Source: an uncultured Chloroflexia bacterium (GTDB lineage Bacteria > Chloroflexota > Anaerolineae > CG2-30-64-16). From it: 64,000 bases of DNA. The notes beneath the pieces are model-generated. The model did no database searches. It was given only the letters and a program-made list of their open reading frames with translations, and had not been told where the DNA came from. The translations under genes and the position numbers were made by a program. How positions within the stretch are numbered: position 1 is the first letter of the stretch; every line of letters begins with the position of its first letter. Shown here piece by piece: positions 37,583 through 53,991 of this stretch. The stretch covers positions 416,001 through 480,000 of the forward strand of contig CAWEMM010000006.1 of NCBI GenBank assembly GCA_963810095.1, in the 5' to 3' direction.

Positions 37583-37605
37583 CGGCGAAGGTGGAAACGC
37601 CGCTT

Positions 37606-37679
37606 GCCCCCGTAGCTCAGGTGGATAGAGCGAGGCACTCCTAACGCCTAGGCCGAGCGTTCGAGTCGCTCCGGGGGTA
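37606..37679 (+). tRNA. tRNA-Arg(CCT), left copy (attL)
   Basis: Cloverleaf GCCCCCG/CGGGGGT, D arm GCTC/GAGC with A20, anticodon loop CT-CCT-AA, T loop TTCGAGT; CCA not encoded. Confidence 0.92.
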
Positions 37680-37681
37680 CT

Positions 37682-37740
37682 TTACTACTACCTGTAGTGT
37701 TTTTCCCTCAGAATTCCCCATATATAGTGGTAGCGCTGTC
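37682..37740. repeat. Left internal inverted repeat of the island (two palindromic boxes)
   Basis: ctactacctgtagt...cccatatatagtggtagcgctgtc matches the reverse complement of 53807-53867. Confidence 0.85.
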
Positions 37741-37754
37741 CAGGAGTAAGGTGG

Positions 37755-38684
37755 ATGGCGCGCATAGACCTAGGAACTCGTTTAAAAGTAGTTCAATCCC
37801 AACCGGCATCGGACATTCAGCAGGCGGGTGATTTGTTCCTGCTGGACTGCCGCGCCCGGCGTCTCAGCCCCGGCACGCTCGATAGTTACACCCGGCGCAT
37901 GCGTAGTTTTCAAGCTTGGTTCCACGAAAACGGCATCACCCGGCTCGTGGACCTCACGTCTCATCACATTCGCGCCTACCTCGTGCACCTTCAAGATCGC
38001 GGCCTGGATGACGACACGGTCATCACCGAGTACCGCGTGTTGCGGGCCTGGCTGAACTTCTGCGTCCAGGAAGAAATGATCAGCGCCAGCCCCATGAAAA
38101 AAGTACGGTCCCCGCGCTTGCCCAAGGAGATTCTGCCTGCCTTCGCGCCCGAAGATGTACAGAAGCTTCTCGCAGTCTGCCAGACGCCGCGCGACAAGGC
38201 CATCATCCTCTGCCTGCTCGACACAGGCTGCCGGGTGTCGGAGTTCGCAGCCCTCAACATCGGCGATGTGGACGCGCAGAACGGCGCGGTCCAAGTGAAG
38301 CTCGGCAAGGGCCGCAAGGACAGAATCGTATACTTGGGGGCCAAGGCCCTGCGCGCCCTGCTGAAATACCTGCGCACCCGGCCAGACTCCAAGCCCGCCG
38401 ATGCGCTGTGGCTGAGCGAGAAACGCCGGGAGCGACTGACGCTGTGGGGCCTGGAAGAGCTTCTGTCGCGGCTTGGGAAGCGCGCGGGCGTCGAGCACGT
38501 CAACCCGCACACCTTTCGGCGGTCATTCGCGCTGTGGAGCCTGCGCAGTGGCATGGACATCTTTAGCCTACAACGGCTGATGGGCCACGCCGACCTAACC
38601 GTTCTTCACAGGTATCTCGCCTTGGTAGAAGGCGACCTTGAAGCCGCACATCGGCAGCACGGCGCGGTCGACAACATGCTGTAA
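37755..38684 (+). CDS. Tyrosine recombinase/integrase, XerC/D-like (core-binding + catalytic domains only)
   Basis: DTGCRVSE (R), GKGRKDR (K), HTFRR, MGH, RYL catalytic set intact; N-terminal SAM-like domain; 309 aa. Confidence 0.93.
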   Translation: MARIDLGTRLKVVQSQPASDIQQAGDLFLLDCRARRLSPGTLDSYTRRMRSFQAWFHENGITRLVDLTSHHIRAYLVHLQDRGLDDDTVITEYRVLRAWLNFCVQEEMISASPMKKVRSPRLPKEILPAFAPEDVQKLLAVCQTPRDKAIILCLLDTGCRVSEFAALNIGDVDAQNGAVQVKLGKGRKDRIVYLGAKALRALLKYLRTRPDSKPADALWLSEKRRERLTLWGLEELLSRLGKRAGVEHVNPHTFRRSFALWSLRSGMDIFSLQRLMGHADLTVLHRYLALVEGDLEAAHRQHGAVDNML

Positions 38685-38806
38685 CCCTTGCTGCGGAGCT
38701 TCAGCACTGGCGGTGGTCCTTGCCGGAGGTCGTCACACGGCCACCGGCAAGTTGCATTTTGCGCCCGGCCAGCAGGCGACGATCTTGCAGTGAGGGGAAA
38801 AGAGCC

Positions 38807-39214
38807 ATGCGTACACAGACTATTCTGAACAAAGCCATGGTCCAACGCCTCTATGAGGACGTCTGGAACCGAAATGACCCGGCGGCAGCCGCCGACATCT
38901 TCGCTCAACCGAGCGGCGCCCAAGCCTATGTCAGCCAGTTTCGCGCGGCGTTTCCGGACGTGCACCGTACGGTGCTGACAATGGTTGCGGAAGGGGACGT
39001 CGTGATGACGCACTGGACAGCCCGGGCAGCCCATCTGGGCCAATGGCACGATCTCGCCGCCACCGGCGCTCGCGTGCGTTGGACAGGCGTTACCATCGCC
39101 CATGTGGCCGATGGGAAGATCGTGGCGGACCAGACGGTGTGGGACGCGCTGGGTCTGTTGGAGCAGACCGGCGCGGTCCCGCGAATCAGGGAGGCCGACG
39201 GTACTCAGCTGTAG
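38807..39214 (+). CDS. SnoaL-like ester cyclase / NTF2 fold
   Basis: NKAMVQR, FRAAFPD, VAEGDVV, ATGARV, DGKIV. Confidence 0.85.
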   Translation: MRTQTILNKAMVQRLYEDVWNRNDPAAAADIFAQPSGAQAYVSQFRAAFPDVHRTVLTMVAEGDVVMTHWTARAAHLGQWHDLAATGARVRWTGVTIAHVADGKIVADQTVWDALGLLEQTGAVPRIREADGTQL

Positions 39215-39439
39215 TCGGGGTTAGGAGCCGCACGCTGCGCGTAAGGGCCTCCCGCTTGATCGCGTCCGGAATGCGGAGGGCTGGAACCCGCCAGCCACCC
39301 CGATACATCGCGGCTGCGTAGAATGCCGATCAGCCTGCGGCTACCAGGACATATGCCGACCTCGTATCGCATGCTGCCACCAACCTCGCTAACCTATGCG
39401 AGCTTAAGCCGGGACAAGCATGTCTTTGTTTGTCGGGCC

Positions 39440-39616
39440 ACACGCGTCCTGGTGCCTCAGATTGCGCGCAACCTGCCTCGGCGCGCGCCGCAAAACAGTC
39501 GTACAATAGGAACGCGCAGCAGATGACAAACACTGCTCGCCGCGCATGACGAAGCAGCATGACCGTACCAGAGGTCCTTTCTGATGTTGGAGAGCCTGTA
39601 ACGCCGAGGTATCTGA
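39440..39616 (+). pseudogene. Decayed 3' end of a tyrosine recombinase (relic 1)
   Basis: Frameshifted translation LRAT...NAQQM..HCSPRMTKQHDRT...; ends 3 nt before the GNAT ATG; 52/68 nt identical to relic 3 over 39498-39565 vs 45180-45247. Confidence 0.65.
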
Positions 39617-39619
39617 TCA

Positions 39620-40411
39620 ATGAAATCGTCTGCTGAGTTGTTGGCCGCGTCGGACGCCAACATGATTGCGTTCTGGTCGGCCTATGGTCGCGGGGCTGGC
39701 TGCACCTCGCAGGTTGCGCCGGGCGTGGTCTGGGTCTATACGGGCATCCCGACCCCGTTGTTCAACTGCGTGCTGCTGTCCGACGCCGGGGCAGCGGATG
39801 TGCAGGCGACTGCGGACGCGGTCCGGGCGAAGATCGATGAGCGGGGCGTACCGGCCATGTGGTGGGTCGGCCCGCAGGCTGGGCAAGACGACGTCGCCCC
39901 GCGGCTGGAGCGGATTGGCCTTGCCCCTGCCGGGGAAGTGCCCGGCATGGCGCTCGACCTGGCGCTGCTGAATGACGCACATGAGGCGCGTCCGGAGTTC
40001 ACAGTCGAGCGCGTCCACGGGACCGTGATGCAAGCGCTGTGGGGGCACACTGCCGGGATCGGGACGGGTTTCCCGGATGAGACCAGCGCCGCGCTGGCAC
40101 AGGTTGAAGCGACCCTGAACGACTCGGAGTATCTGGCGCAGCGCCGCTATATCGGTTACTTGAATGGCGAGCCGGTGGCGACGTCGGCCCTGGTATTGGC
40201 TGCGGGAGTGGCAGGCATCTATGCCGTCGCCACAGTGCCCGCGGCCCGCCGCAGGGGCATTGGTCGGCTGATGACGGTGCTCCCACTACTGGAGGCCAGG
40301 CGGGAAGGTTATCACAGCGGCATCCTCCAGTCGTCGGCGATGGGCTATCCGGTGTACAAGGCGATTGGTTTTGAAGAGGTGAGCCGGTACAGGCTTTATG
40401 CGCAGGCTTAG
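39620..40411 (+). CDS. GNAT-family acetyltransferase
   Basis: GEPVAT, AGIYAVATVPAARRRGIG, YKAIGF. Confidence 0.88.
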   Translation: MKSSAELLAASDANMIAFWSAYGRGAGCTSQVAPGVVWVYTGIPTPLFNCVLLSDAGAADVQATADAVRAKIDERGVPAMWWVGPQAGQDDVAPRLERIGLAPAGEVPGMALDLALLNDAHEARPEFTVERVHGTVMQALWGHTAGIGTGFPDETSAALAQVEATLNDSEYLAQRRYIGYLNGEPVATSALVLAAGVAGIYAVATVPAARRRGIGRLMTVLPLLEARREGYHSGILQSSAMGYPVYKAIGFEEVSRYRLYAQA

Positions 40412-40439
40412 TGGATCGCGCCAGGCTTGCGACATCGAG

Positions 40440-40790
40440 GGCAGCGCGGCCTCAACCCGCGCCTGGGGGAGGCTCGGAGACATCAGCCCGCCGGTCGGCC
40501 TGGCACCAGCACCTATACGGTCAGCCTGTCCCTGGTTGTCGAGCCGCTTGTGAAGACCCAGGCGGGTGCCGCGCGCATCACAGCCCGCGCAGCGCGCCCT
40601 GGCCCTGGACTGGCTGTGGGCCAACTACCACGGCAAGGCCAAGTACAGAGACGTCTGGTTCGAGTGGGCAGGCAAGCCGCTGCTCATCGCGTTCGACCCG
40701 ATGACCTTAACGATGCGAGTGTCGGCAACATATCCCATCAGCTACATGATCCGGAACTGGACGGGTCGCCGCGGCGCAGATCGAAGTTGA
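40440..40790 (+). pseudogene. Fragment of a larger protein (glycoside-hydrolase-like?)
   Basis: ALDWLWANYHGKAKYRDVWFEWAGKPLLIAFDP looks coding, but has no start and is truncated. Confidence 0.35.
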
Positions 40791-40870
40791 CGCCTCTGAG
40801 GACTGTATGTCGTTGAACGACTTTCGCATGGCCTTCACTTAATTCACATTTTCCATCCCGACGTCCCTCT

Positions 40871-41221
40871 CTACTCTGCTTTATCCGCGGCTCTTATTAT
40901 GGTCTTGGCAGCTTCTCGGTCAACCGATTCCTGATAGATGTCGGCGTAAGTTTTCAAATCTTTGATCAGATCGTCACAGAAAGCCGCCACGTCTCTGCCC
41001 GTCACTTCGAGCACGCCTTTCCCCGCGGCCGCGCCCGCTTCAAAGAGATCAATGATCCCCGAGAGCAAACCCGTCCCCTCGCTTAGCTCTACCGGGCCGA
41101 CCTTGAAGAGATACTGCTGAATCTCCTTGTAGACAATCTGGTAGTCCCGCGGGAGCGCATTGACACGCGCCATGTGCGCTCGCCACTCTTTTTTGCCTTC
41201 GATCATATCTCGTATGCTCAT
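40871..41221 (-). CDS. DUF1048-family protein
   Basis: KKEWR...LPRDYQIVYKEIQ...GRDVAAFCDDL. Confidence 0.88.
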   Translation of the reverse strand: MSIRDMIEGKKEWRAHMARVNALPRDYQIVYKEIQQYLFKVGPVELSEGTGLLSGIIDLFEAGAAAGKGVLEVTGRDVAAFCDDLIKDLKTYADIYQESVDREAAKTIIRAADKAE

Positions 41222-41230
41222 GCTGTCCTC

Positions 41231-41578
41231 CTACTTGCCCAATTTCCTGGCGACATTGTTGTTCAGCTGCTCGCGCCACTTATCGCGATAGGACTGTGCC
41301 CCTGCTTCGCCAGCGAGCGCAGCACAGAAGCCGCTGATGTCGTCACCCAAGACCTCCTTAACGCTCTGACCCTCCGCCGCCGTTTCTTCGAGCAGGCCAA
41401 GCACACCGTCAAGAATGGGCATGAGGTTGCGACCGGCAAAGTCTGTGTACGGCCAAAGATTGGCGTTGACCTGCACCCATGCCGTTTGATAATCAGGCGG
41501 CAGCTTTTTGGCTCGCGACTCGAAGGTCTTCCATTCCTTCTTCATGTCACTGCCAGTAATCTTGTCCCAGAAGCTCAT
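41231..41578 (-). CDS. DUF1048-family protein
   Basis: SFWDKITGSD...LPPDYQ...LGDDISGFC...YRDKWREQLN. Confidence 0.88.
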   Translation of the reverse strand: MSFWDKITGSDMKKEWKTFESRAKKLPPDYQTAWVQVNANLWPYTDFAGRNLMPILDGVLGLLEETAAEGQSVKEVLGDDISGFCAALAGEAGAQSYRDKWREQLNNNVARKLGK

Positions 41579-41904
41579 TGTTTCTTCTCCTTCAACTCCC
41601 TGATTTTTGATGATACAAACCCCCATTTCGTCCAGAACGCGGCGAGTTCCTGCCGCCCCGCCTCGTTAAGCCTGTAGAACTTGCGCGGCGGCCCCATGTC
41701 GGACGGCCGTTTTTCGATATCCACGAGGTTGTTCTTCTCGAGCCGGACCAGGATGGTATAGACCGTCCCATCTACAACGTCCGAGAATCCAAGCGCGTTC
41801 AGCCGCCGGGTGATCTCGTAGCCGTAGATTTCCTCGTGGCTGATGATTTCAAGAACACAGCCCTCCAGCACGCCTTTGAGCATTTCAGTTAGGTTTTCTG
41901 CCAT
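41575..41904 (-). CDS. PadR-family regulator
   Basis: EMLKGVLEGCVL, YGYEI, GTVYTILVRLE, GPPRKFY. Confidence 0.92.
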   Translation of the reverse strand: MAENLTEMLKGVLEGCVLEIISHEEIYGYEITRRLNALGFSDVVDGTVYTILVRLEKNNLVDIEKRPSDMGPPRKFYRLNEAGRQELAAFWTKWGFVSSKIRELKEKKQ

Positions 41905-41964
41905 GCAGCTTCACTCCCATGCTATCCTGTATGACCTGTATTGAGTGTGACTTAGTACTGGTAT

Positions 41965-41993
41965 AAAGTAACACAGAATAGCGTGGCTGTCAA
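41965..41993 (-). promoter_or_regulatory. Promoter of padR-DUF1048 operon
   Basis: TTGACA-17bp-TACTTT. Confidence 0.55.
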
Positions 41994-42217
41994 TGGTTTG
42001 ATCGCCAACATCCGTCATGATAAAGGTTCTCCCACGCGTGCTGGTCAAGCTCCCCCTGGGGGCATTGACTAATACAGGCCATTGCGTGCAATCCCCCCAC
42101 CCTAGTGTCGAGCGCCGCGGGGAGTAGGATCGCTACCTGCCACAGGCCGTGTCCGCAGGCGCTAACTTAGCAGAAGCAGCGCGCCAACCCCTCTCACGTC
42201 ATCCCTTCCCGCACGCC

Positions 42218-42303
42218 AAGAAGAAGCAGAATAATAAGAACAATCAGAATCCACAGGTTAGGGGGTGTAAGGTTCTGATCACTCTTCTTCTTCTGATCGT
42301 TTT
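42218..42303. repeat. Purine/pyrimidine (AAG/CTT) imperfect inverted repeat
   Basis: aagaagaagcagaataataagaacaatcagaa...ttctgatcactcttcttcttctgatc. Confidence 0.55.
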
Positions 42304-42429
42304 CCACCCGCGGCTGTGGACACCTAGCCGATGTGGCGGGCATGCACGCACAACCGCCGCCCCTCGACAGTGCGCACGAAACGCGGCTGGCTCTCGCTGT
42401 GCAGGTCGTGGCCCAGGGGATCAATCCCA

Positions 42430-42620
42430 TGCCACAGCCGCGGTGGACCTGCGAATCGCCATCATGCTGCGCAGTAAGCTTCACCGCCTGCCTACACATC
42501 GGTGGTACAATCGAGCCTGCACAGCAGATGGCAACCACGGATCGCCGCGCACGACCCGGCTGTATGACCGGACCAATTGCGCGAGCAGCCTGGCTGGATC
42601 GACAAGCTAATTACACTCCG
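42430..42620 (+). pseudogene. Decayed 3' end of a tyrosine recombinase (relic 2)
   Basis: CAVSFTACLHIGGTIEPAQQMA then (frameshift) NHGSPRTTRLYDRTN. Confidence 0.75.
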
Positions 42621-42690
42621 ACCGTGAGGGTGAGCGGCTTCAAGGGTGCCAGGTGTATGTCTACCAGCCCATTAAGGGGAAGGTGCGAAC

Positions 42691-43074
42691 ATGGAGACGA
42701 CAACACTGCCCGACCAGCCCGATGGGAAATCACCCGCAGGGGCTGACATCCGCTTCCTGGTGGCTGGCGCAACCGGCAACATGATCCACAGCACCGTCCC
42801 GCCGCGCCAGGTAAACCGGGCGACGGTCCACGCGACGGTAAGCGAGTTCTGGTATGTCTTGGAGGGACGCGGCGAAATCTGGCGCGACAACGGTGTGGCG
42901 AGTTGCGTCACGGCGCTTGTTCCGGGCACCGCCATCGATATTCCTGTCGGGACCGCGTTTCAGTACCGCAACCTCGCGGACACCGAGCTTAAGTTCATTT
43001 GTGTCGCCATGCCGCCGTGGCCCGGCGCTGCCGAAGCGAGCTGTGTGGAAGGTATCTGGCGACCAACCGTATGA
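42691..43074 (+). CDS. Cupin-domain protein
   Basis: HATVSEFWYVLEGRGEIWR, IPVGTAFQYRN, MPPWPG. Confidence 0.85.
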   Translation: METTTLPDQPDGKSPAGADIRFLVAGATGNMIHSTVPPRQVNRATVHATVSEFWYVLEGRGEIWRDNGVASCVTALVPGTAIDIPVGTAFQYRNLADTELKFICVAMPPWPGAAEASCVEGIWRPTV

Positions 43075-43189
43075 CCTTCGCGCGCCTACACCGGCGGCTG
43101 AACTTACCAGTGCCTCCGGGTCAACACATGCCCAGTCAATTCAAGAGTCAGTAGTTACGTCGCCTCCACACCCGGTCAACGAGGTGCTT

Positions 43190-43578
43190 ATGCAGATCAA
43201 GTTTGTCAGCATCACTGTAGAAGATCAAGAGCACGCTCTTGACTTCTACACCTCCGTCCTCGCTTCCAGAAGATGGCGGACATACCCACGGGCCAGTTCC
43301 GCTGGCTGACCGTGACCTCGGCCGATGGTATCGCGGGCACGGAACTCGTGCTGGAGCCAGCCGCCTTTCCGCCTGCCCAGGTATACCAGAAGGCTTTGTT
43401 TGAAGCGGGCATCCCAGCGACTGCCTTCATCACGCAAGACATTGCCGCCGAGGTCCAGCGCCTCCAAGCGCGGGGGGTCAAGTTCCGCGGCGAGGCGACA
43501 CATAGGGGACCGATCACGGCGGCGCTATTTGAAGACACTTGCGGAAATCTCATCAATCTCGTTCAGCCGGACGCCTGA
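43190..43578 (+). CDS. VOC/glyoxalase-family protein (indel near 43262)
   Basis: SITVEDQEHALDFYT..., RWLTVTS, ELVLEP, FEDTCGNLINL. Confidence 0.85.
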
Positions 43579-43621
43579 CCCGCTGTTGGGGGCGGCGTGC
43601 CCCGAAGCTGCACATTAGGGC
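43573..43621 (+). repeat. Degenerate, shortened attC-like hairpin
   Basis: GCCTGAC (overlaps stop codon)...ttgggggc/gccccgaa...ATTAGGGC. Confidence 0.35.
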
Positions 43622-44318
43622 GACCAAATGCTACGCGCCGGTGCGCTTGCCGCAGTGTTGCCCAACCCCCGGCCATCCCTGCGCCTGGCGCTTGCTCTAA
43701 AGGCCCACTTGCGCAAGGCTCCCACCGTAGTAGTACCCAAGGCGCGTCCGGTGCAACCTATGGCAAAAGGCGGGTGGACGACCAGGAAACCCAGCGACGG
43801 CCGCCGCCGGGCAAAGACGGTGATTTCCCGGCATGATCGCGGCTGCCGCCGAGCCAGGGACATGGCAGGCCAGAGACGGCGCGGGGTGGACGGTCCCGGC
43901 GAGGATCGACCGTACGGTCGGGCCGGGCAACATGGATGCGGGCAGGGTTCCCCACGGCCCGACGCTGCCATGACGCCAACCTGCCGACCATAGGCCAACC
44001 TCAGCTACAGTTATCGTGTCTTATATGCAGGAGACATGCCGCGTGCCGGGCGTGTAAATGACACTGGACTCTATGGAAGAGGTCGGCTGGGTCAGCGAAG
44101 CTGGAGTAGGTTAGCACAAACGAAAAGGCCGACGTAGCTGAACGTCGGCAATCAGGTTGGCCCGCGCAGTTGGGCGTGCGGCCGGACGTGTCACGCGCCG
44201 CGGCCCCGCAGGCTCAACTTCGGTACTTCGCTCTGTGGGGGTCAAGCGGTGCAGCACATGCTCACCCATCCAGTCGGACGGGGTCGTCAAGGCAAACGGG
44301 CAACCGTGCTGCCGCGCG

Positions 44319-44600
44319 TCAGACGGCAACCTGATCCGGGGCATAGATGACGACGAACGTGTCCCGTCGGTCAGCAAACCGCACCTCGACAGCCCACGAG
44401 CCGGGTTGCTGATCGGGATGCACGCTGGCAAGTGTCGACTCGGGGAAGGCGGCCAGCAGCCGGGTTAGGCGCGGGTAGAATTCCTGTGGCAACTCCCCCA
44501 GGTTGCTGCCGACCGGTACGTCGTCAGCTGGTCGTGGTGAGGGCAATTCGGCGTGGGGTTGTGCTTCATAATCCGGCGTTATCATCTCGTGTAACCTCAT
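44319..44600 (-). CDS. Hypothetical protein
   Basis: Plausible ORF with protein-like composition; no motif recognised. Confidence 0.4.
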   Translation of the reverse strand: MRLHEMITPDYEAQPHAELPSPRPADDVPVGSNLGELPQEFYPRLTRLLAAFPESTLASVHPDQQPGSWAVEVRFADRRDTFVVIYAPDQVAV

Positions 44601-44644
44601 TCTATCCGTCGCAAGCCAAGGCTTGCGCGAGTGGCTCCAGGCTG

Positions 44645-44971
44645 TCAAATAGCCCCTACCGGCCAAGGTTCGCACGCGGCGAACATGACCAGTGCGCGCC
44701 GCCTTGCCTCAGTCTGGAGGATATCGCGCGCAAGGTGGTAGTTGAAACATGCCGACCCAGGGTGCTCCCCCGCCCGCGCCGCAATCGGGCAATCGGCCGG
44801 GCAACTGGGCAAAGCCTCACGCAGCGTCTGGTAGTTTGTGTACTCATCCAAGACCCGCGCCATGACGTGCCGGTATTCGCCCGCCCGGTGAAAATCCTCC
44901 GGTATCCGTTCCACTTGTAGAAGCAAACACAGCCGGATCGCCGTTTCCGTCACTTCGCACACGGTCATCAT
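44645..44971 (-). CDS. Hypothetical protein (Cys/His containing)
   Basis: RBS gggag before ATG; CPADCP...H..SAC motif. Confidence 0.45.
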   Translation of the reverse strand: MMTVCEVTETAIRLCLLLQVERIPEDFHRAGEYRHVMARVLDEYTNYQTLREALPSCPADCPIAARAGEHPGSACFNYHLARDILQTEARRRALVMFAACEPWPVGAI

Positions 44972-45039
44972 AGCGTCGCTCCCGAGAGGGGGAACATCTA
45001 CCCCCACCATCCAATCGTACGCCCGGCTGTCAAGCGACA

Positions 45040-45296
45040 TTGCGTGAGGCATTGCCCGCAGAACGGTCGACGGCCCGCACCGCGTGGTGCACCCCCCCGA
45101 CAGCAGGTGAGCCGGAACACCGCACACGACCTGCTGCCAAACATTCCGCGCAACTTGCAGCACCCCCGGCCTCAAAATAGTCGTACAATTGGAGCGTGCA
45201 GCAGAGCACGGACAACGGTCGCCGGGCACGACCACGCTGTATGACCGCATCAGCAACGCCATGAGCCTGGATGAGATCGAGCGCATGCTTATTCAG
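45040..45296 (+). pseudogene. Decayed 3' end of a tyrosine recombinase (relic 3)
   Basis: AGTPHTTCCQTFRAT (45129-45155 = TCCQTFRAT) then SPGTTTLYDRISNAMSLDEIERMLI. Confidence 0.8.
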
Positions 45297-45341
45297 GCAG
45301 CAGAATCGCGATGCCAAAGAACCGCCGGTGGGAGGTCAAGT

Positions 45342-45666
45342 ATGACTGAATCGATGCCACGCATTAGCAACGCTTTCCAAACCTTAATGAGCGATGCGCC
45401 GCACCACGCCCGGGCGTGTTGCGGCATGGTACAAGGGCCTCGCCCAAGCCAGCGCCCTGGATGGGAAAACCGCCGCTTTATGCTACCTGGCGGTGTTGGC
45501 GGCCCTGCGGCTGGAGAGCGGCATCCCCTTTCACGTTCAGGCCGCCAAGCGGGCAGGCGCAACCCGCGCGGAAGTCATTAGCGCCGTTCTGATCGGCTTG
45601 CCTGCGGCCGGACATGGCGTGACGCAGGTCCTGCCGACGGCGCTCGCCGCTTTCGATACGGATTGA
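45342..45666 (+). CDS. Carboxymuconolactone decarboxylase/AhpD-like protein (indel near 45410)
   Basis: ISNAFQT..., SALDGKTAALCYLAVLAA, GIPFHV, GATRAEVISAVL. Confidence 0.8.
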
Positions 45667-45854: not shown

Positions 45855-46037
45855 TCAGGACGCCCCAGGTCCGGTCTTGTCATCTTTCGGCTGCCGCTCA
45901 TGCTCTGCTCGCCGTCGGGCAGCTTCGGCAACGCGCCGCAGGTTCGCGATGGCCGCGGCGATCTCTTGGGCCACCGGACCTTGGCCTTTCTTTCGGTTGG
46001 GGCGCGAAGCATCCTCGGGTCGTTTGTCTTGCGTCAT
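45855..46037 (-). CDS. Small hypothetical protein
   Basis: 60 aa ORF with an amphipathic helix. Confidence 0.3.
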   Translation of the reverse strand: MTQDKRPEDASRPNRKKGQGPVAQEIAAAIANLRRVAEAARRRAEHERQPKDDKTGPGAS

Positions 46038-46231
46038 ATGGGCAAAACGAAGCGCAAGTAGTCGGAGTTCCTTGGGCGTGGTCCCGCCCAGGCATGATTG
46101 TCGGATGAGGTCGGACGGTGTATCATCCCGTCCGACCTGTGGGGTTCACCATCTGCCACGGTCTGGCTGTCGGTGTCGGCGCGAAGCGGGCTGTCTTGCC
46201 GGGCCGACACTCCATCATTCCGGAGGGCATT

Positions 46232-46699
46232 ATGAGCATGGCACAGTCGCGACGGCCATTTTGGGTCTATCTGCTGGTATTCTTTTGCGTGGTTCTCGGG
46301 TTGGGCGGCCTGTACGGGGGTGTGTCGTTCATCACCGATCCGACGGGCGCAGCGATGGGCATGGACGTCAGCATGTTGCGCGGCTTCATGAACACCTACC
46401 TGCCGTTTGGCGTCTTCCTGCTGATCGCGTTCGGGATCGCGCCGCTGGTGCTGGCGTGGGCGCTGATCGCGCGGCCGCGCTGGTTCCCAGCCATCACGCG
46501 GGCGACGGACCGGGATTGGGCCTGGGTCGTGACGCTGGCAATGGGCGCGGGGCTGCTCGTGTGGATGGCGGGCCAGTTCATCATCATGGGCTACCAAGCG
46601 CCGATCCAGGCCTTCACGACCTCTCTGGGCGCGGTCATCACTCTGTTGAGCCTGGTTCCTTCGGTACGGCAATACTACCGCGTCAGCGCGCGAGCTTGA
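46232..46699 (+). CDS. 4-TM membrane protein
   Basis: GGVSFITDPTGAAMG, YLPFGVFLL, WMAGQ; RBS ggagg. Confidence 0.75.
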   Translation: MSMAQSRRPFWVYLLVFFCVVLGLGGLYGGVSFITDPTGAAMGMDVSMLRGFMNTYLPFGVFLLIAFGIAPLVLAWALIARPRWFPAITRATDRDWAWVVTLAMGAGLLVWMAGQFIIMGYQAPIQAFTTSLGAVITLLSLVPSVRQYYRVSARA

Positions 46700-46869
46700 C
46701 GCGCCACGGTGTCCATCGTGGCCCAACGTGTAGGGCCACCTAAGCCATGGAGTCTCACACGCGTGGCCGCTGCCGAGGGTGTGCGTGCATCACCATGGCG
46801 TGCACTGTGCGATAATGAGTAGTTAGCTGGACTCACACTCACCATGACTACCAGGAAAGGAGAAGTCGC

Positions 46870-47502
46870 ATGACCTTGATCGCAATCAACGTACTGCTTG
46901 ATCCAGATGCCGCCACGGTCGAGCGGGCACAGGCGACGAACGCCCGGCTACGCGAGGACTATCCCGATGGTTTCGCCCTCGACGCCAACCACGCGCCGCA
47001 CATCACCCTGCTCCAGCGGTTTGTGCGGACGGCGGACCTTGACTGGGTCGCGCATGCTGTGGCCGAAGTGCTGCGCACAGAGCAGTCGATGAACTGGGAG
47101 AGCCATGCGACCGGCTACTATGACCTGGCCTACAAGAATCTCGGATTGGTGGGCATCGTCATCGAACCGACCGAGGATTTGCGGCGACTTCAGCAGAGGA
47201 TCATCGACGCCGTCGCCCCGTTCGCCGTGGAGAAGGGGACAGCCGAGGCCTTTGCCCCCCGCCCCGACGGCGCAGCGATCAGTCAGCCGACAGTGGACTA
47301 CGTGAACAACTTCGTCGGCACCCGCACCGGCGTGAACTACCACCCGCATTTGACCGTCGGCATAGGAACCCGCGGCTTCGTGGACGCTCTGAAAGCGGAG
47401 CCATTCCAGGCCTTTACCGTCCGGGCAGTATCCGTGAGCCTCTACCAGGTAGGGGATTACGGTGTGGCACAAAGGAAGCTCTATGACCTCCACCGTTGCT
47501 GA
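46870..47502 (+). CDS. 2H phosphoesterase / 2'-5' RNA ligase-like protein
   Basis: Two HxT motifs: PHITL and PHLTV. Confidence 0.8.
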   Translation: MTLIAINVLLDPDAATVERAQATNARLREDYPDGFALDANHAPHITLLQRFVRTADLDWVAHAVAEVLRTEQSMNWESHATGYYDLAYKNLGLVGIVIEPTEDLRRLQQRIIDAVAPFAVEKGTAEAFAPRPDGAAISQPTVDYVNNFVGTRTGVNYHPHLTVGIGTRGFVDALKAEPFQAFTVRAVSVSLYQVGDYGVAQRKLYDLHRC

Positions 47503-48424
47503 TCCACTACCCTCCTGGAATGATAGCCCCTCAAAGCAGGGCATCCTTGCGTTTGTCGCCAGGGTGACACAGGAAGGTTCACCCGACTTCGTGCCACTGG
47601 CAGAACGCATCGCCGTGCACGACAACGACGGCACGCTCTGGCCGGAAAATCCGCTGCCGTTTCAGGCGGCCTTTGCCATCGATGAACTTAACCGGCGCGT
47701 CCTCGCTGAGCCTGGACTCGCGGCCGATCCGATGGTGCAGGCCGCCCTGTCCGGCGACTTTGCCAAGCTCCTGGCAGGCCAACACCTGGATGGCCTCATG
47801 CAGGTCGCGGCGCTCACCCATGCTGGGATGACGACCGACGCGTTTCGTAACGCTGTGGAGACATGGCTGGCGACGGCCAAACATCCGCGGTTTGGCAGAC
47901 CCTATGACGAACTCACCTACCAACCCATGCAGGAACTCCTGCGCTATCTACGCGCCAATGGCTTCAAGAACTTCATCGTTTCCGGCGGCGGCGCGGACTT
48001 CATGCGCGTGTGGGTCGAGCGCGTGTACGGCATACCACCGGAGCAGGTTGTCGGCTCGACAACGCGGCCGACATTCGAGCTACGCAACAGCGGACCAGTG
48101 CTGACCAAGACGCTCGACTATTTATTCGTCAACGACAAGGAGGGCAAGCCGGTCGCCATTCATCAGTTTATCGGCCGACGACCGGTGATCTGTTGCGGGA
48201 ACAGCGACGGCGACCACGCCATGCTCCAGTACACGACGATCAACAACCCGCGCCCGAGTTTCGGCCTCATCGTCCACCATACGGACAACGAACGCGAGTA
48301 TGCCTATGACGCCGAGACGAAGAGCACCGGCAAGCTTGTCGAAGCCCTTAAGGAGGCCCCCAAGCGCGGCTGGGTCGTCGTGGACATGCAGCAGGACTGG
48401 AAGACCGTCTTTCAGTCCGATTAG
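47483..48424 (+). CDS. HAD-family acid phosphatase
   Basis: DPLPSWND, HDNDGTLWPE, IVSGGG, GNSDGD. Confidence 0.9.
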   Translation: MTSTVADPLPSWNDSPSKQGILAFVARVTQEGSPDFVPLAERIAVHDNDGTLWPENPLPFQAAFAIDELNRRVLAEPGLAADPMVQAALSGDFAKLLAGQHLDGLMQVAALTHAGMTTDAFRNAVETWLATAKHPRFGRPYDELTYQPMQELLRYLRANGFKNFIVSGGGADFMRVWVERVYGIPPEQVVGSTTRPTFELRNSGPVLTKTLDYLFVNDKEGKPVAIHQFIGRRPVICCGNSDGDHAMLQYTTINNPRPSFGLIVHHTDNEREYAYDAETKSTGKLVEALKEAPKRGWVVVDMQQDWKTVFQSD

Positions 48425-48461
48425 AGGTAACTCGTGGCAGGTCGACTTCGGTTCTGCCAGC

Positions 48462-48553
48462 CTACAACGGCCATAGACATCGACCGCCGAAGTGTTGCGC
48501 TGGTCGCCTGATGAAGCCTGCGCCGCAGCGCGCGGTTCAATACGCACTTAGGG
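48462..48553 (+). repeat. Degenerate attC-like site
   Basis: CTACAAC-ggcca-tagacatcgaccgc...gcgcggttcaa-tacgcaCTTAGGG. Confidence 0.35.
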
Positions 48554-48689
48554 ACGTCGAGCGTTTGTCGCCCGCGAAGGATCGGCGCGCGCTTCTTGGC
48601 TGAAGCTGAGCGACGGACACGGTCGGAAGGGGCCGCGAGTGAATGTATCCGTCTGTAGAACAACTCGGCCCCTTGCGCAGGAGTCGGCC

Positions 48690-49220
48690 ATGCCCGCACC
48701 CGTTCTTGTCCTGCCCGGCCTCGGCAACTCGGGGCCGCTGCACTGGCAATCCATCTGGGAACAGGCACATCCCGAATTTGTACGCGTCCAACAGCGCGAT
48801 TGGGATAACCCGGTTTGCCCAGAGTGGGTTGCCGCCATCGAGGCAGCCGTGCAGCGTGCCGGGCCGGATGTTGTGCTGGTCGCACACAGCCTCGCCTGTT
48901 TGGCCGTCGCCCATTGGTCGGCCAGCCCGCATTCACCCATTAAGGCCGCGCTGCTGGTTGCAGTACCCGACCCCGACTGCCCCGAGTATCCCGGGCACCT
49001 GCTTGGTTTCTCCAAGCCCCCCACCGAGCAGTTCACCTTTCCCGCCGTCGCCGTCGTCAGCGCCGATGATCCATATAGCACACCGGAACACGCCGAGCAG
49101 CTTGCGGCCGCTTGGGGCTGTCGTGTCGTTCGTGTCGGTGCTTACGGCCACATCAACGCCAGCAGCGGCCTTGGCGCTTGGGCCGAGGGTTATGCGTTGC
49201 TGGACCATTTGCGGAGCTAA
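48690..49220 (+). CDS. RBBP9/YdeN-family alpha/beta hydrolase
   Basis: PGLGNSGPLHWQ, VAHSLAC, SADDPY, GHINASSGLGAW. Confidence 0.92.
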   Translation: MPAPVLVLPGLGNSGPLHWQSIWEQAHPEFVRVQQRDWDNPVCPEWVAAIEAAVQRAGPDVVLVAHSLACLAVAHWSASPHSPIKAALLVAVPDPDCPEYPGHLLGFSKPPTEQFTFPAVAVVSADDPYSTPEHAEQLAAAWGCRVVRVGAYGHINASSGLGAWAEGYALLDHLRS

Positions 49221-49311
49221 CCCTTCGTTCGGGGCGGAGGTGCCCGCGGTTGCGGTTCTCGGTTGGGAGAGGGCATCGCCGCCGAGCAGTCCCCTGACTC
49301 CAACGTGAGAC
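49215..49311 (+). repeat. Degenerate attC-like site
   Basis: GCTAAC (contains the stop codon)-ccttcg-ttcggggcgga...tcccctga-ctccaac-GTGAGAC; ~97 bp. Confidence 0.5.
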
Positions 49312-49465
49312 AGTCAAGTCGCCCGGACCTGCGCGCTCCCAGAAGCTTGTGGCACCTGAGGTTGATTCCCAAGTCTGCCCGCCGCTATCGCCTGCCTGCC
49401 GGGCTAGGTTAGTGGTAGCCCCAACTGATCGAGCGGCGCGGTTTTCGACACTGCGGGCTGTGGGG

Positions 49466-50267
49466 TCACGCCGCGCCGCGTTTTAGTGTCGTGGTGCTGT
49501 CAGGGTGGCTCGACAGGCCCGCTCTGACATACGCCAGGCCCTCCAACCAATCCGCCGTCTCGTACACGCACTCACCGTCGGGCCGAAAAAGGTAGCCGCC
49601 GCCCGGGAAATCTTCATCTACGGTGCGCCCGGCCTGCGTCGCCACCGCAATCCACAGCCGGTAGTCGCGCGCGTAGGCTGCCAGGTACTGGTGGCACTCG
49701 CCGCGCCACCACGCGTAACCTGACCGCCAGTCGCGGGTGGCTTGCTCCCCATACAGACCCGGCGCAGCCACCTCAAACACCACCTGGGCACCCTGGCGGG
49801 CGCAGGCGGCGAAAACATCGGGGTTGTGGATGTCGGCGCAGATGGCGATGCCGTAGGTGAGATCGTCGTGGCGAAAAACAGGCACTGCGTTGCCCGGCGC
49901 AAACCAGGCCGCTTCCTCATCCACAATGGACACTTTGCGGTAGTAGCCGACCAAGCGGCCACCACGCGCCGCTACATGGGTGATAAATGGTTTGCCGGAT
50001 GGGTTCGCCTCTACCAATCCGGCGAGCAGGGTCGCCCGACCGTTGGCCGTCAGGGCGACAAGCGCCGCGACTTCGGGGCCATCAAGCCGCAGGATGGCCC
50101 CTGGCTGGCGCGTGGGGTCGATGTAGCCGGTCAGGCTCATTTCGGGGCACGCCACGATGCATGCGCCCTCCTGGTCGGACTGCTGGTACACGCGCTCGAT
50201 GGCGGCCAGGTTCTCGGCCACGGCCGCCTTCTCAGCAGCGCAGTTGGGCCAACGCCAGTGTTACCAT
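49466..50267 (-). CDS. Carbon-nitrogen hydrolase (nitrilase family); indel near the 5' end
   Basis: PEMSLTGY, YRK, AICAD catalytic triad motifs. Confidence 0.88.
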
Positions 50268-50408
50268 GCAGGGCAGTATAGCTAGCGGTGAGAAGAGGGT
50301 CAACCAGAGCGCGTCCGGGCAGAAATCGTAATGTTGCTCACGCGGATTTCACAAATGCAGCACTAAAGTAGTGAAATCGCCGTACTACCCATGACTAAGG
50401 AGAGCCAT

Positions 50409-50705
50409 ATGGAAGGTCCGATCTACAAATTCTTCCGTGTGCAGTGGACCGAGGCGGGGTATCAGTTGGGCCAGGCGGGACGCGACAACCTGCTAGCCAA
50501 AGAGGCGGAGCTTCGGCAGCAACTCGGCATCAAGAATGTGGTGCTCTGCAACTCGTTCTGGAGTGACGAACGCTGGGCCGCGTATGGGGTTCACGAATAC
50601 GCCGATATTGAGGCCGTGCGTAAGCACAACGCCGGGATGGTAGCGCTGGACTTGTTCCGCTACCTTGAATCCGAAACGATGTTGGGCACGGCCTGGGGGA
50701 GCTAG
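50409..50705 (+). CDS. Small hypothetical protein (ferredoxin-like/GYD-like fold?)
   Basis: RBS aaggag; WSDERW..YGVHEY...YLESETMLG. Confidence 0.6.
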   Translation: MEGPIYKFFRVQWTEAGYQLGQAGRDNLLAKEAELRQQLGIKNVVLCNSFWSDERWAAYGVHEYADIEAVRKHNAGMVALDLFRYLESETMLGTAWGS

Positions 50706-51101
50706 CCAGAGCCACCGGCCAGCCGCCTGCGTCGCGCACAACTCCTGTGAGTTCGCGCATTCGGAGTTACGAGCGTGGGTTGTCGCGTGTTTGGGAAACC
50801 AGGCGGCCTCGACGGCGGGCCGGTACGACGCACGCGTGGGGTGTGGGCCGCGCGCGGCCGGGAGCCGCGCGGCAATTCATATGACTTCGAAAGACGCGCG
50901 TCTTCCCCTTTGTAGATCGTCGGCGCGTTGCACGGCGCAGTCTGCCGAACGTCTTGACGCGTCCTGGCATGGCGCGACAATCGGTTCGTGCTGCGCGCTG
51001 TGATGTTCATTCCGCCTCAGTTCCCACAGAACAAGAGCCGGAGCAGTCACACAGCGCAGCGATCTGGGTCTGACAGCGGGCGAAGGGAGCCGCCGGAGGC
51101 C

Positions 51102-52040
51102 ATGCCGACCCCACGCCAGGATACCTCGCCAGACACCGCCCTGCGAACGCATGGCCTGTGCAAGGACTACGGCCCGATCCAGGCGGTCGTCGGCCTGGAC
51201 CTCCATGTGCGCCGCGGCGAAATCTACGCCTTCCTCGGCCCCAACGGCGCGGGCAAGACCACCACGATCCGCATGCTCCTGGGTCTGGTCCGACCGACCG
51301 CAGGTCAGGCCACCCTCTTGGGCGCACGCGTTGCGGCGGGCAGCAACCACGTCTTCGCCCGCGTGGGTTACCTGGTGGAAACGGCCACGGCCTATCCCAA
51401 TCTTACCGTGCGCGAGAACCTGGACATCCAGCGGCGACTCACGCGGGCACCCCGGGCGGCGGTCGGTGATGCCATGGAGCTTCTTGGCCTTGCCGGTTCA
51501 GCCAATCGGCAGGCGGGCCAGCTATCGCTCGGCAATAAACAGCGGCTGGCGCTGGCGCGCGCCCTGCTCCACCGCCCCGAGCTACTCATCCTCGATGAAC
51601 CGGCCAATGGGCTTGATCCGGCCGGGATCATCGAGGTGCGCGAGCTGCTGCGGCGCTTGGCGAACGAGAACGGCGTGACCGTCTTCCTGTCAAGCCACAT
51701 CCTGGCGGAGGTCGCGCAACTGGCCGACCGCATCGGCATTATCCACCAGGGCCGCCTGCTTCAGGAACTCGACTACGCCGAACTCCGCCGCCGAACGCGC
51801 CTGTACCTGGAAGTCGAAGTGAGCGAGCCAGACCGCGCGGCCGGGCTGTTAGCCGCGCGCCTCGGCATCACGGCGTTGGAGCGCACGCCCGAGGGTGGGC
51901 TGCGCCTCTTTGAAGGCTTCGACCGGCGCGCCGAGATCGCGCGCACCCTGGTCGAAGCTGGACTCGACCTGACGCACCTGGCCCTGGCGCAGGAGGACCT
52001 GGAGTCCTACTTCATGCGGCTGACGGGGGGTGCCGGGTAA
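51102..52040 (+). CDS. ABC ATP-binding protein (BcrA/lantibiotic-immunity type)
   Basis: GPNGAGKTT, LSLGNKQRL, LDEPANGLDP, SSH. Confidence 0.9.
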   Translation: MPTPRQDTSPDTALRTHGLCKDYGPIQAVVGLDLHVRRGEIYAFLGPNGAGKTTTIRMLLGLVRPTAGQATLLGARVAAGSNHVFARVGYLVETATAYPNLTVRENLDIQRRLTRAPRAAVGDAMELLGLAGSANRQAGQLSLGNKQRLALARALLHRPELLILDEPANGLDPAGIIEVRELLRRLANENGVTVFLSSHILAEVAQLADRIGIIHQGRLLQELDYAELRRRTRLYLEVEVSEPDRAAGLLAARLGITALERTPEGGLRLFEGFDRRAEIARTLVEAGLDLTHLALAQEDLESYFMRLTGGAG

Positions 52041-52823
52041 ATGTTCGGCCAAGCCGTCGTCACCGAGTTCCTGAAGCTGCGCCGGTCCCGGATCACCTGG
52101 TTTTCGCTGCTCGCACTGTCGCTGGGGCCGCTCGGCGGCGCGCTCTTCATGTGGATCGTGCGCGAGCCGGGCCGCGCGGCGCAGCTGGGCCTGCTCGGCA
52201 CCAAGGCGAACCTCGCCGGTCTTGAGGCAACGTGGCCCGCGTACCTGGCGCTGCTAACGCTGTTTGTCGGGATCGGCGGGATGCTGCTGCTGTCCTTCAT
52301 CGTCGCTTACGTCTTCGGCCGGGAGTACGCCGAGGGCACCGCAAAGAACTTGCTCGCGCTGCCGGTGGCCCGCCCCTCGTTCGTGCTGGCGAAGTTTGTG
52401 GTCGCGGCGGCGTGGTGGCTGGCCCTCGTCGCGGCGGTCCTCGCGGAGGCATTCGTGATCGGGAGCGCGCTCGGGTTGCCTGACTTCGCGCCGGGCCTGG
52501 CCCTCAGCGCCGGGCGCAATGCGCTGCTGGCCGCAGGCATCCCGTACCTGCTCGTGCCCGTTGTCGCGTGGATCACCCTATTGGGGCGCGGCTACCTGGC
52601 CCCGCTCGGCTTCACGCTGGCGATGCTCGTGCTGGGTAACGTGTTCGCCCGGACGGGCTGGGCACCCTGGTTCCCCTGGTCGATTGGGGCGCTGCTGCTC
52701 GGCACCGTCGGTCAACCGGCGCAGACATTGCCGCCGGGCAGCTTCGTCGTGCTCGGGCTGACATTCATCGCAGGCATCGCGGCCACCATCTGGCAGTTCA
52801 ACTACGCCGACTGCAACCAGTAG
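52041..52823 (+). CDS. ABC-2 permease (BcrB-like)
   Basis: EFLKLRRS, VFGREY..GT.KNLL.LP, FPWS. Confidence 0.85.
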   Translation: MFGQAVVTEFLKLRRSRITWFSLLALSLGPLGGALFMWIVREPGRAAQLGLLGTKANLAGLEATWPAYLALLTLFVGIGGMLLLSFIVAYVFGREYAEGTAKNLLALPVARPSFVLAKFVVAAAWWLALVAAVLAEAFVIGSALGLPDFAPGLALSAGRNALLAAGIPYLLVPVVAWITLLGRGYLAPLGFTLAMLVLGNVFARTGWAPWFPWSIGALLLGTVGQPAQTLPPGSFVVLGLTFIAGIAATIWQFNYADCNQ

Positions 52824-53806
52824 GCTCGCGCCGCAGCAGATAGGGGGCCGCGTCAGATTACCAAGCAGCTCCGATTCCGGCCTTTCTCTGCCCAACCAGG
52901 CCGCGCCGCCAACCTTCCAACTTACTCCAGCCTTAGCCCAAGACATCATGTCTCGATTGAAGGCCGACTGCGAACACGGATCGAGCGAATGACACCACGT
53001 TCTATCAGAAAGGTTGGCGTAGGTCGGCGGAAGCGGCTGACGTGCGCCATCCGGATGGGCTGTGGCGGGATGGCGAGAGGTGCATTGCCTTGTCGAGCAG
53101 TATCGTGGCGCACTGCCGGGGGCTGCGTGTTCAAACCCGCGCTGAACACGTCACCTGCCGCACAATGGCAATCGCTGCATGACAGCCATAAATGAGTCGG
53201 ACAAAAGCCCTGCTGTGCCATCAAGTTTTGATGGGGTCAGGCGGGGCTGTTGCGGCCACGCGATTGATCGGAGTTGAGATCTGGCGGCGCGGGGCGCTGC
53301 TGTCGATGACAAGGCGTGGGCCGTCAAGTGCGATGGCATGCGTCGAGCGGCTGCACCGGGTGCGACTGTGATGGCGCAATCAGGCCGGTCGCGTTGAAGC
53401 CCATCCTGCTGGTCGCCGGGCGGCCGCAGGGGTATGCGGTGGTCGAGCTAAATGAGCTACACGCCAGGCAGCGCGATTACGAATCGCCTAGCTGACCCGC
53501 GTGCCGCGACGGCGCGCGTCGGCTTTGGCGACGTTGTTTGCAACAACGGCCGTCGCTGGCAGCCGCTAAGATTGCGGCGTCGAGCCGCGCACGGATCGCA
53601 GGCGTGCCGGGCAAAAGTCGGGCAGCGAACTGAGCCGCTGGGATCGGAAATCTAGACGAGGTCGATGTTTTGGCAGAGTTGGTGCACAATGCGGACGATG
53701 GCTGCGAGTACTCGCTCTTGCGGTCTGGCCGTCGCTCCGATATAATCATGACGCTAAGCCAGCAAAATACAGCAAGGAATTCGCAAAATTCCTAAAATTC
53801 AAAGGC

Positions 53807-53867
53807 GACAGCGTTACACCATATATGGGCATTTTCAAAGGCAGGCATACTACCGGTAGTAGAAAAA
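53807..53867. repeat. Right internal inverted repeat of the island
   Basis: gacagcgttacaccatatatggg...atactaccggtagtag, mirror of 37682-37740. Confidence 0.85.
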
Positions 53868-53941
53868 GCCCCCGTAGCTCAGGTGGATAGAGCGAGGCAC
53901 TCCTAACGCCTAGGCCGAGCGTTCGAGTCGCTCCGGGGGTA
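53868..53941 (+). tRNA. tRNA-Arg(CCT), right copy (attR)
   Basis: Identical to 37606-37679. Confidence 0.92.
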
Positions 53942-53951
53942 CTGGTTCGAT

Positions 53952-53989: not shown

Positions 53990-53991
53990 CC

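Follow-up and report, generated by a model that had tools for sequence, protein, structure and literature searches.

The window analyzed here is a 64,000-nt stretch of DNA, positions 416001 to 480000 of C6, a 1.92-Mb contig of a metagenome-type assembly that totals 6.13 Mb in 16 contigs (completeness, 88.5%; contamination, 4.8%). It contains two tRNA genes, both of them tRNA-Arg(CCT) and both on the forward strand (37606-37680 and 53868-53942, found with ARAGORN), and the subject of this report is the 16.26-kb stretch that begins with the first and ends with the second (37606-53943) and that carries an integrase gene beside its left tRNA copy. Each tRNA gene and the one nucleotide that follows it form one unit of a 76-nt direct repeat (37606-37681 and 53868-53943, forward strand), and a repeat search found the two units to be 100% identical; we refer to them as the tRNAs of attL and attR, respectively. 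The 3'-terminal 21-mer of this tRNA occurred at two sites in the whole window when up to 3 mismatches were allowed (chance expectation, 0.02), and a search across the window for a third, partial copy of tRNA-Arg(CCT) found none. Among the 51 tRNAs of the assembly, the only identical duplicates were this pair and a pair of tRNA-Ile(GAT) genes. On the host side of attL, a consensus scan located a site on the forward strand that probably acts as a promoter (37554-37582, TTGACT-17-TAGTAT with TG before the -10 element); no consensus promoter was found in the scan before tRNA copy 2, and a terminator-like hairpin followed by a run of T was present on the host side of attR (53966-53983, forward strand). 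An earlier note on this DNA had described two tRNA-Arg(CCT) genes in a perfect 76-bp repeat, the duplication of an entire tRNA, and a promoter at the left copy with a terminator at the right. The first and last of these statements were confirmed, and the second is supported by a repeat that spans both complete genes.

The integrase gene (37755-38684, forward strand) starts 74 bp downstream of the left tRNA copy, is on the same strand as the tRNA, and encodes a protein of 309 aa. Pfam placed the phage integrase domain PF00589 (Phage_integrase) at residues 131 to 290 (E 1.5e-34) and the beginning of a SAM-like core-binding domain at residue 28. Residues R160, K185, H252, R255, H278, and Y287 were all present and were invariant across a 12-member alignment of the integrase family (A1), and we take these columns to be the R-K-H-R-H/W pentad and the nucleophilic tyrosine of the tyrosine recombinase superfamily. 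The AlphaFold2 model of the protein (pLDDT, 85.5) had no secondary structure in residues 1 to 19, a first helix at residue 20, and a four-helix core-binding domain after the unstructured N terminus. Because the modeled protein passes from this unstructured stretch directly into the core-binding domain, it is predicted to have no folded arm-binding domain, and it is a simple, Xer-like tyrosine recombinase in the sense of PMC8138268, in which such proteins are defined by the lack of an N-terminal arm-binding domain. The earlier description of the sole mobility gene as an Xer-like integrase without an arm-binding domain is supported by these Pfam and AlphaFold2 results.

The closest structural matches found with Foldseek were the two-domain recombinases XerA, which is archaeal, and XerD, with the Brujita integrase at rank 9, and when PDB entries were matched by sequence, XerA and XerD were again nearest and Brujita Int (5vfz) matched too. 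These PDB matches, the best NCBIfam matches, which were to XerA, XerC, and XerD, and a weak match to the integron integrase model are what would be expected if the gene encoded an integron integrase or a chromosome-dimer resolvase of the host's XerC/XerD type, a reading to which we give almost no credence. The scores obtained were far below the curated cutoffs of the respective models (XerA, 175.9 versus 220; XerC, 173.7 versus 335.15; XerD, 169.1 versus 329.6; integron integrase TIGR02249, 88.2 versus 265). Other Xer-like genes of the same genome were 28 to 29% identical to the integrase, and two of them used as an outgroup (C6 1871842-1872630 and C11 171891-172799) were separated from the integrase family with a support of 100. 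The gene also lies inside an insertion that five relatives lack, as described below, unlike a conserved host gene that acts at a dif site, a kind of site at which no search was aimed. No cassette-like repeat array was found near the integrase in repeat searches of the region, none of which was directed at attC.

Directly inside both tRNA copies are imperfect inverted repeats of approximately 60 bp, which we call the left arm (37682-37741, forward strand) and the right arm (53807-53865, reverse strand). When the left arm was aligned with the reverse complement of the right arm, the Smith-Waterman score was 39, a value reached by none of 1,000 shuffles, the highest of which scored 23. Each arm contains two dyad boxes of the approximate form CCACTA-N4-TAGTGG. 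The first adjoins the tRNA (box A, 37685-37700, CTACTACCTGTAGTGT, in the left arm and box A', 53847-53862, ATACTACCGGTAGTAG, in the right arm), and the second is located approximately 30 bp further in, around CCCATATATAGTGG (box B, 37715-37730, TCCCCATATATAGTGG, in the left arm and box B', around 53814-53831, in the right arm). At a threshold of 10 of 12 positions or better, the dyad CCACTA-N3-5-TAGTGG was found in 42 of 110 non-redundant regions upstream of integrase genes of this family versus 2 of 808 control windows, and the layout of two boxes between the end of the tRNA and the start of the integrase gene recurred in about 30 family loci. Since mirror-image arms with boxes lie inside both tRNA copies, the attachment site would have the layout arm, tRNA, arm, integrase gene. 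The earlier note was right that the protein has no arm domain, but it had overlooked the inverted arms and their dyad boxes, so the DNA does have arm-like sites. With an integrase beside the tRNA and direct repeats of tRNA sequence at both ends, we consider it highly probable that 37606-53943 is a site-specific integrative island that was placed in tRNA-Arg(CCT) by its own integrase, with a crossover that is likely to have occurred in the anticodon stem-loop.

The integrase belongs to a family whose members are repeatedly associated with tRNA genes. In what follows, L numbers denote family loci, G numbers denote genomes (G000 is the window's own genome), and C numbers denote contigs. Relatives have several integrase homologs per genome, with 40 to 58% identity. 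When 185,579 species genomes were scanned with a pattern, 58 loci were obtained, nearly all of them in metagenome-assembled genomes of Chloroflexota (Anaerolineae, Caldilineales), and scans of viral contigs and of metagenome contigs provided 80 loci each. The closest homolog, that of L194, was 65% identical to the window integrase and was its sister in the tree with a support of 97. Linkage to tRNA genes was counted for the 105 loci that had at least 38% identity and at least 200 bp of upstream sequence, and 32 more loci had no room for such a count. A complete, co-oriented tRNA was found within 400 bp of the integrase start in 55 of the 105 loci and an opposite-strand tRNA in 12, and ARAGORN found none in the remaining 38. 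For 34 of these 38, the upstream sequence was examined, and a partial tRNA was present in 21. The integrase thus stands beside a tRNA or a tRNA fragment in at least 88 of the 105 loci, and the tRNAs used by the family include those for Arg (CCT, TCT, TCG, and CCG), Lys, Met, Gly, Ser, Thr, Cys, Val, Leu, and SeC.

The genome to which the window belongs contains three further elements of this family, four in all. One at tRNA-Ser(GGA) (C7:104646-115896) is 11.2 kb long and has an intact integrase and a repeat that comprises tRNA positions 7 to 88, and one at tRNA-Gly(CCC) (C8:53589-54677) has a broken integrase. Two other places, C8:140366 and the end of C9, have partial copies of tRNA-Gly(CCC), from position 30 to the 3' end, together with arm sequence. 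Elsewhere in the family, L061 (4944-5148) and L076 (6132-6326; the same as L035) have two tRNA-Met genes approximately 50 to 55 bp apart directly upstream of the integrase, with a distance of 121 to 130 bp from start to start. L120 (1045-2472), on a 39.7-kb IMG/VR contig, has a family integrase and an attP-like site in which the 5' part of a tRNA lies between two arms. This contig encodes a primase/helicase (PHROG, E 4e-89) and was the only one with named matches when 10 large open reading frames (ORFs) of three viral contigs with family integrases were compared with PHROGs, which suggests that some family members reside on replicating virus- or plasmid-like elements.

Second repeats were sought in the 18 loci that had an adjacent complete tRNA and at least 8 kb of downstream sequence. 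Six of these had a second repeat of the whole tRNA, namely, L096 with Gly(CCC), L065 with Arg(TCT), L089 with Gly(TCC), L202 with Met, L256 with Val(CAC), and L112 with Met, and their repeat blocks started 4 to 44 nt upstream of the tRNA and stopped at its 3' end. One more, L091, had a partial repeat of positions 29 to 75. Duplication of a whole tRNA, which had been regarded as unusual, is therefore not exceptional within this family, accounting for 6 of the 7 repeats found. Two additional loci, L051 with Arg(TCG) and L054 with SeC, also have whole-tRNA repeats, and the integrases of both are broken. Inverted arms were significant in 8 of the 10 two-ended elements (0 of 500 shuffles reached the score), borderline in L112 and L054 (1 and 2 of 500 shuffles, respectively), and absent in the decayed L051.

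Several other, short contigs contained both arms around a single tRNA or part of one, an arrangement that would be expected for attP or for the joint between two tandem elements. The sequence between the arms was a whole tRNA in L233, L121 (a viral contig), and L214, the 3' part of a tRNA in L208, L271, L080, L128, and L124/125, and the 5' part of a tRNA in L255, L120, and L119. The first three display the arrangement that the earlier note had proposed for attP of an excised circle, with a complete tRNA; the circle itself we infer. Elsewhere, the left arm and the integrase directly follow a host promoter and a tRNA's 5' part. At L194, positions 2 to 51 of tRNA-Arg(CCT) adjoin the integrase gene. 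In the window's own genome, positions 1 to 41 of tRNA-Gly(TCC) are followed by a left arm and a frameshifted integrase (C14:315233-316315), and the genome's only intact tRNA-Gly(TCC) has a right arm directly upstream (C12:745704-745935) that aligns with the C14 arm with a score of 42. Both halves face contig ends, and they make up an element of the 5'-part design that spans a contig gap and breaks at tRNA position 41. Across the family, the 5' parts end at positions 40 to 51 and the 3' parts mostly start at positions 23 to 34. When site designs, which were assigned from locus evidence and could be wrong for single-ended loci, were mapped on the integrase tree, 13 changes were required over 32 tips versus a mean of 14.6 after shuffling, demonstrating that the design changes freely.

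Whole, 3'-part, and 5'-part sites have just one segment in common, the anticodon stem-loop, and for this reason the crossover, as judged from these sequence comparisons, most likely takes place there; the block boundaries in relatives bracket positions 30 to 40, approximately. An alternative, considered because of the block starts, is a crossover in the tRNA's D-arm or at its 5' end, which would be a sublocation outside the classical three and for which the element would carry nearly the whole tRNA in order to rebuild the gene. The identity blocks of the window, L051, L089, L065, and L096 start no later than tRNA position 1 and that of the C7 element starts at position 7, and the blocks stop abruptly where the tRNA ends on its 3' side. 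For some Klebsiella islands, a sublocation in the D-loop has been put forward (bioRxiv 10.1101/2020.11.02.365908). This explanation was dropped because the partial-tRNA relatives, including the closest homolog at L194 and the C14/C12 element, bracket the anticodon stem-loop and not the D-arm, and we regard it as quite improbable.

With a crossover in the anticodon stem-loop, the history of the island can be proposed as follows. It would have entered a single-copy tRNA-Arg(CCT) gene through the activity of its own 309-aa integrase. The attachment site of its circular form would consist of the right arm with two dyad boxes, a complete tRNA-Arg(CCT), the left arm with two boxes in mirror image, and the integrase gene, and the integrase would probably bind these boxes. 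The tRNA copy of the element and the host gene would then have recombined, most likely in the anticodon stem-loop, to give one whole tRNA at each end, with the host promoter remaining on the left and the host terminator on the right. There is no terminator between tRNA copy 1 and the integrase gene, and since the two are on the same strand and only 74 bp apart, the integrase of the integrated island may be driven by transcription that reads through from the promoter of the tRNA.

Integration doubles the tRNA, as the earlier note had stated, insofar as gene copies are concerned; the statement fares less well for tRNA supply, as copy 2 is without a consensus promoter and AGG codons are not clearly enriched. 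The AGG share of Arg codons was 13/201 in the cargo versus 6/142 in the flanking genes, a difference too small to support a tRNA-dosage benefit, and this idea was rejected. Copy 2 may be transcribed: a right arm precedes the cell's only copy of tRNA-Gly(TCC) on C12, which suggests that arms allow transcription.

The locus was then compared with that of five relatives, G003, G004, and G007, which belong to the same genus as the window genome, and G005 and G012. All five carry tRNA-Arg(CCT), whole or partial, and have neither the window integrase nor the cargo. The right flank was syntenic. In G005 and G012, the tRNA is directly followed by the His_Phos_1 gene (window 58372-59121), and in G003, G004, and G007, a block with an S8 peptidase (window 53994-58146) that is absent from G005 and G012 lies between the tRNA and the His_Phos_1 gene. 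The earlier claim of an inserted integrative element was borne out by the presence of the tRNA without the island in five relatives and by the conserved synteny on the right, and the tRNA-Arg(CCT) locus is a variable hotspot.

Several results weigh against a tRNA-targeted island as described above. To the left of copy 1, window 29.5-37.5 kb was not syntenic with the relatives, whose left flank maps to window 24.5-29.35 kb, meaning that 29.5-37.5 kb is also extra and that the broken left synteny leaves no exact empty site for comparison. Within the family, 13 of the 34 examined loci in which ARAGORN found no tRNA were without any tRNA-like sequence, and 11 of the 18 loci in the two-ended test had no second repeat within reach. 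The crossover position cannot be read in the window element, the two copies of which are identical, and its placement rests on relatives. The spacing from arm to core differs among whole, 3'-part, and 5'-part sites, which speaks against a rigid complex of arms and core. An excisionase was not recognized, and approximately 3 kb of the interior is without recognizable genes. The predicted attP pattern had 0 matches in the viral contig collection. Finally, among the 20 public sequencing runs found, the four best, which are from one study and may be the source of the assembly, hold 27 to 39% of the sampled words, and window 36500-55500 is covered only by uninformative Logan contigs of approximately 200 to 400 bp with a depth of 2 to 8, none of which bridges a tRNA copy.

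Given this last result and the completeness and contamination values of the assembly, the locus could also be explained by a segmental duplication, or by an assembly mis-join at the repeated tRNA, with the integrase being merely a neighbor. Such an origin is very improbable. Matched inverted arms are positioned exactly inside both copies, in other genomes, nine or more different tRNAs are framed by the same architecture, and the host promoter is on the left only and the terminator on the right only. Furthermore, a 76-bp repeat would not mis-join an assembly of this kind, with its 1.92-Mb contig, and near-identical pieces of flank, integrase, and cargo co-occurred in the same four runs.

A different possibility is that the island integrated once by the same mechanism and is now a dead relic that no longer excises, its integrase having been kept by chance or for another role. 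The interior stretch without recognizable genes and the lack of excisionase, transfer, replication, or phage genes among the scanned interior ORFs are compatible with this, as are the broken integrases of two of the three other family copies in the genome. No circle or empty site was detected in the viral contigs, in the assembly, in which the island is single copy with no separate circular copy, or in the Logan contigs, which are short and of low depth and contained no joint linking the island ends. Conversely, there is no mismatch between the 76-bp repeats, the full-length integrase has kept every catalytic residue, the boxes are retained in both arms, and simple tyrosine recombinases such as Brujita Int reportedly need no excisionase for either direction. 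A dead relic is thus conceivable, if rather unlikely in our judgment, and the integrated island may still be mobile.

Additional changes at this locus were observed in the window and in the relatives. The extra stretch of approximately 8 kb to the left of the island (29500-37500) contains SurE (29634-30400), PTS EIIC (35025-36494, reverse strand), PTS EIIA_2 (36931-37419, reverse strand), and other genes, and neither a tRNA fragment nor a family box marks its left border. In G004 (L025 9265-9873) and G007 (L026 10249-10856), a full tRNA-Arg(CCT) is followed, after approximately 480 bp, by a partial copy that runs from about position 19 or 22 to the 3' end. The spacer holds an ORF of 69 aa without a Pfam match, and this combination of a full and a partial tRNA marks a further insertion, small or decayed, in the same tRNA. 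At the DNA level, the CN_hydrolase gene of the island (49466-50221) shares 80% identity with a G007 gene (L026 10919-11643) that is located just to the right of the partial tRNA copy and outside the G007 repeats; similar cargo is found at differing positions of one tRNA locus in the window and in G007. In G012, 110 bp before tRNA-Arg(CCT) (L029 9879-9988) resemble the right arm (score, 24; 0 of 500 shuffles), with no integrase and no second tRNA copy within 50 kb upstream of the tRNA, and this stretch may be a lone arm relic.

The remainder of the island is occupied by cargo, which Pfam assigned to two blocks of mixed orientation. The first (38720-43578) contains SnoaL-like (38720-39214) and GNAT (39620-40411) genes on the forward strand, two DUF1048 genes (40871-41221 and 41231-41626) and a PadR gene (41575-41904) on the reverse strand, and a cupin gene (42691-43074) and a glyoxalase-domain piece (43273-43578) on the forward strand. 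The second (46870-52823) contains forward-strand genes for a 2'-5' RNA ligase family protein (46870-47502), a HAD hydrolase (47462-48424), and a Ser_hydrolase (about 48639-49220), the reverse-strand CN_hydrolase gene mentioned above, and forward-strand genes for an ABC ATPase (50988-52040) and an ABC-2 permease (52041-52823). Between the blocks is a stretch with a weak coding signal in its third-position GC profile (43579-46869) that may hold decayed or unfamiliar genes. No tested ORF in it had a Pfam match, and its sole Pfam signal was a weak, below-cutoff match to DUF2516 at 46109-46696 (E 0.0087). Nine further small ORFs had no Pfam match except for the neighboring PTS EIIA_2 gene, which is outside the island. 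A family of 75-nt direct repeats is present within the island in three copies with 63 to 71% identity (39517-39591, 42522-42596, and 45199-45273), and a self-tblastx comparison of 38.7 to 46.9 kb, run to explain this repeat, gave short, weak matches only.

Clear Pfam domains were assigned to at least 13 apparently intact ORFs of the interior. An earlier view of the interior as heavily decayed was therefore overstated, and the designation of the element as minimal applies to its mobility module only, given that the island carries approximately 15 kb of mostly intact cargo. The statement that it has no excisionase, relaxase, replication, or phage genes was upheld: the Pfam scan of the interior ORFs, in which ORFs below 60 aa and the 43.6- to 46.9-kb stretch were left unassigned, found no genes for an excisionase, relaxase, type IV secretion, replication, virion, or lysis. 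On this evidence, the island is without transfer, replication, or phage genes. The practical result for the genome is that a block of detoxification-type and ABC transporter genes has been horizontally acquired.

We tentatively suggest that these elements might use a distinct integration design, in which a recombinase without an arm domain depends on mirror-image dyad boxes around an exchangeable tRNA cassette that is gained whole and later trimmed. The boxes might be read by the short, unstructured N terminus or by the core-binding domain of the integrase. Capture of a whole tRNA, sometimes with part of its promoter, would create a new attachment site in one step, and subsequent trimming would leave a 3' or a 5' part. 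If this is the case, whole-tRNA capture would explain the movement of the integrase among at least 15 different tRNA genes. Since a single protein family is found with 3'-part, 5'-part, and whole-tRNA sites, all framed by the same boxes, it provides a well-populated natural series for learning how an integrase without arm-binding domains uses flanking sites and how integrases switch tRNA targets. In addition, the signature of a tRNA, two dyad boxes, and an integrase gene offers a simple means of delimiting islands in Chloroflexota genomes, in which mobile elements are poorly described.

Most phage and island integrases carry an arm-binding domain, which is thought to control the direction of recombination. 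Simple integrases are a minority, with 27 phages versus 410 and 12 integrative conjugative elements versus 211 in PMC8138268. Like the Brujita integrase and XerT of Helicobacter, the window protein is a two-domain, Xer-like recombinase that serves as the element's own integrase (PMC8138268). It is only 23% identical to Brujita Int in the Foldseek alignment, and its family, unlike Brujita Int, is found in Chloroflexota and has paired boxes on both sides of the core. Brujita Int was reportedly found by Lunt and Hatfull in 2016 to use small sites without arms and to work in both directions without an excisionase. Unlike most integrases of tRNA-targeting islands, the window integrase has no arm-binding domain, and the att arms of its element are mirror images with conserved dyad boxes.

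In Streptomyces SLP1 and Haemophilus phage HP1, the segment of identity between attP and attB is said to span the whole tRNA gene. These elements are conjugative or viral, and their integrases are reportedly larger, with arm-binding domains. In actinomycetes, the att sites of integrative and conjugative elements overlap with the tRNA at its 3' end (PMC2440964). In the tRNA-dependent lysogeny of actinobacteriophages, as described in PMC10865867, a tyrosine integrase also targets a tRNA gene and the element also carries a complete tRNA of the same kind; there, however, the host tRNA is destroyed and replaced by a separate phage tRNA, whereas here the element's copy is itself the att site and each product is a whole tRNA.

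Documented already are the use of tRNA genes as integration targets, mobile elements with simple integrases, and 5'-half and enlarged att sites (PMC8138268, PMC8371274). Literature searches found no description of the Chloroflexota family, members of which might be listed in the supplementary datasets of PMC8138268. New, with no printed description found, are this family, the combination of mirror-image dyad-box arms with a protein lacking an arm domain, and the alternation of site designs among close relatives. The anticodon loop is the classical symmetric (class I) sublocation in the 2002 classification of Williams, as summarized in PMC8371274 and bioRxiv 10.1101/2020.11.02.365908. Like the anticodon-loop islands and prophages of this classification, the window island has an integrase gene beside the tRNA, repeats of tRNA sequence, a rebuilt tRNA, and a dyad-symmetric anticodon stem-loop as the likely core, but its repeat spans the whole tRNA rather than extending from approximately position 27 to the 3' end as in the classical cases. 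In archaeal elements, att sites may extend as far as the D-loop and past the gene, and the sites of L194, L062, L114, and C14/C12 resemble the 5'-half type of the pTN3-like integrases (PMC8371274). The pTN3-like integrases are archaeal and belong to other integrase groups, whereas in the Chloroflexota family described here, 3'-part, 5'-part, and whole-tRNA designs alternate within a single family.

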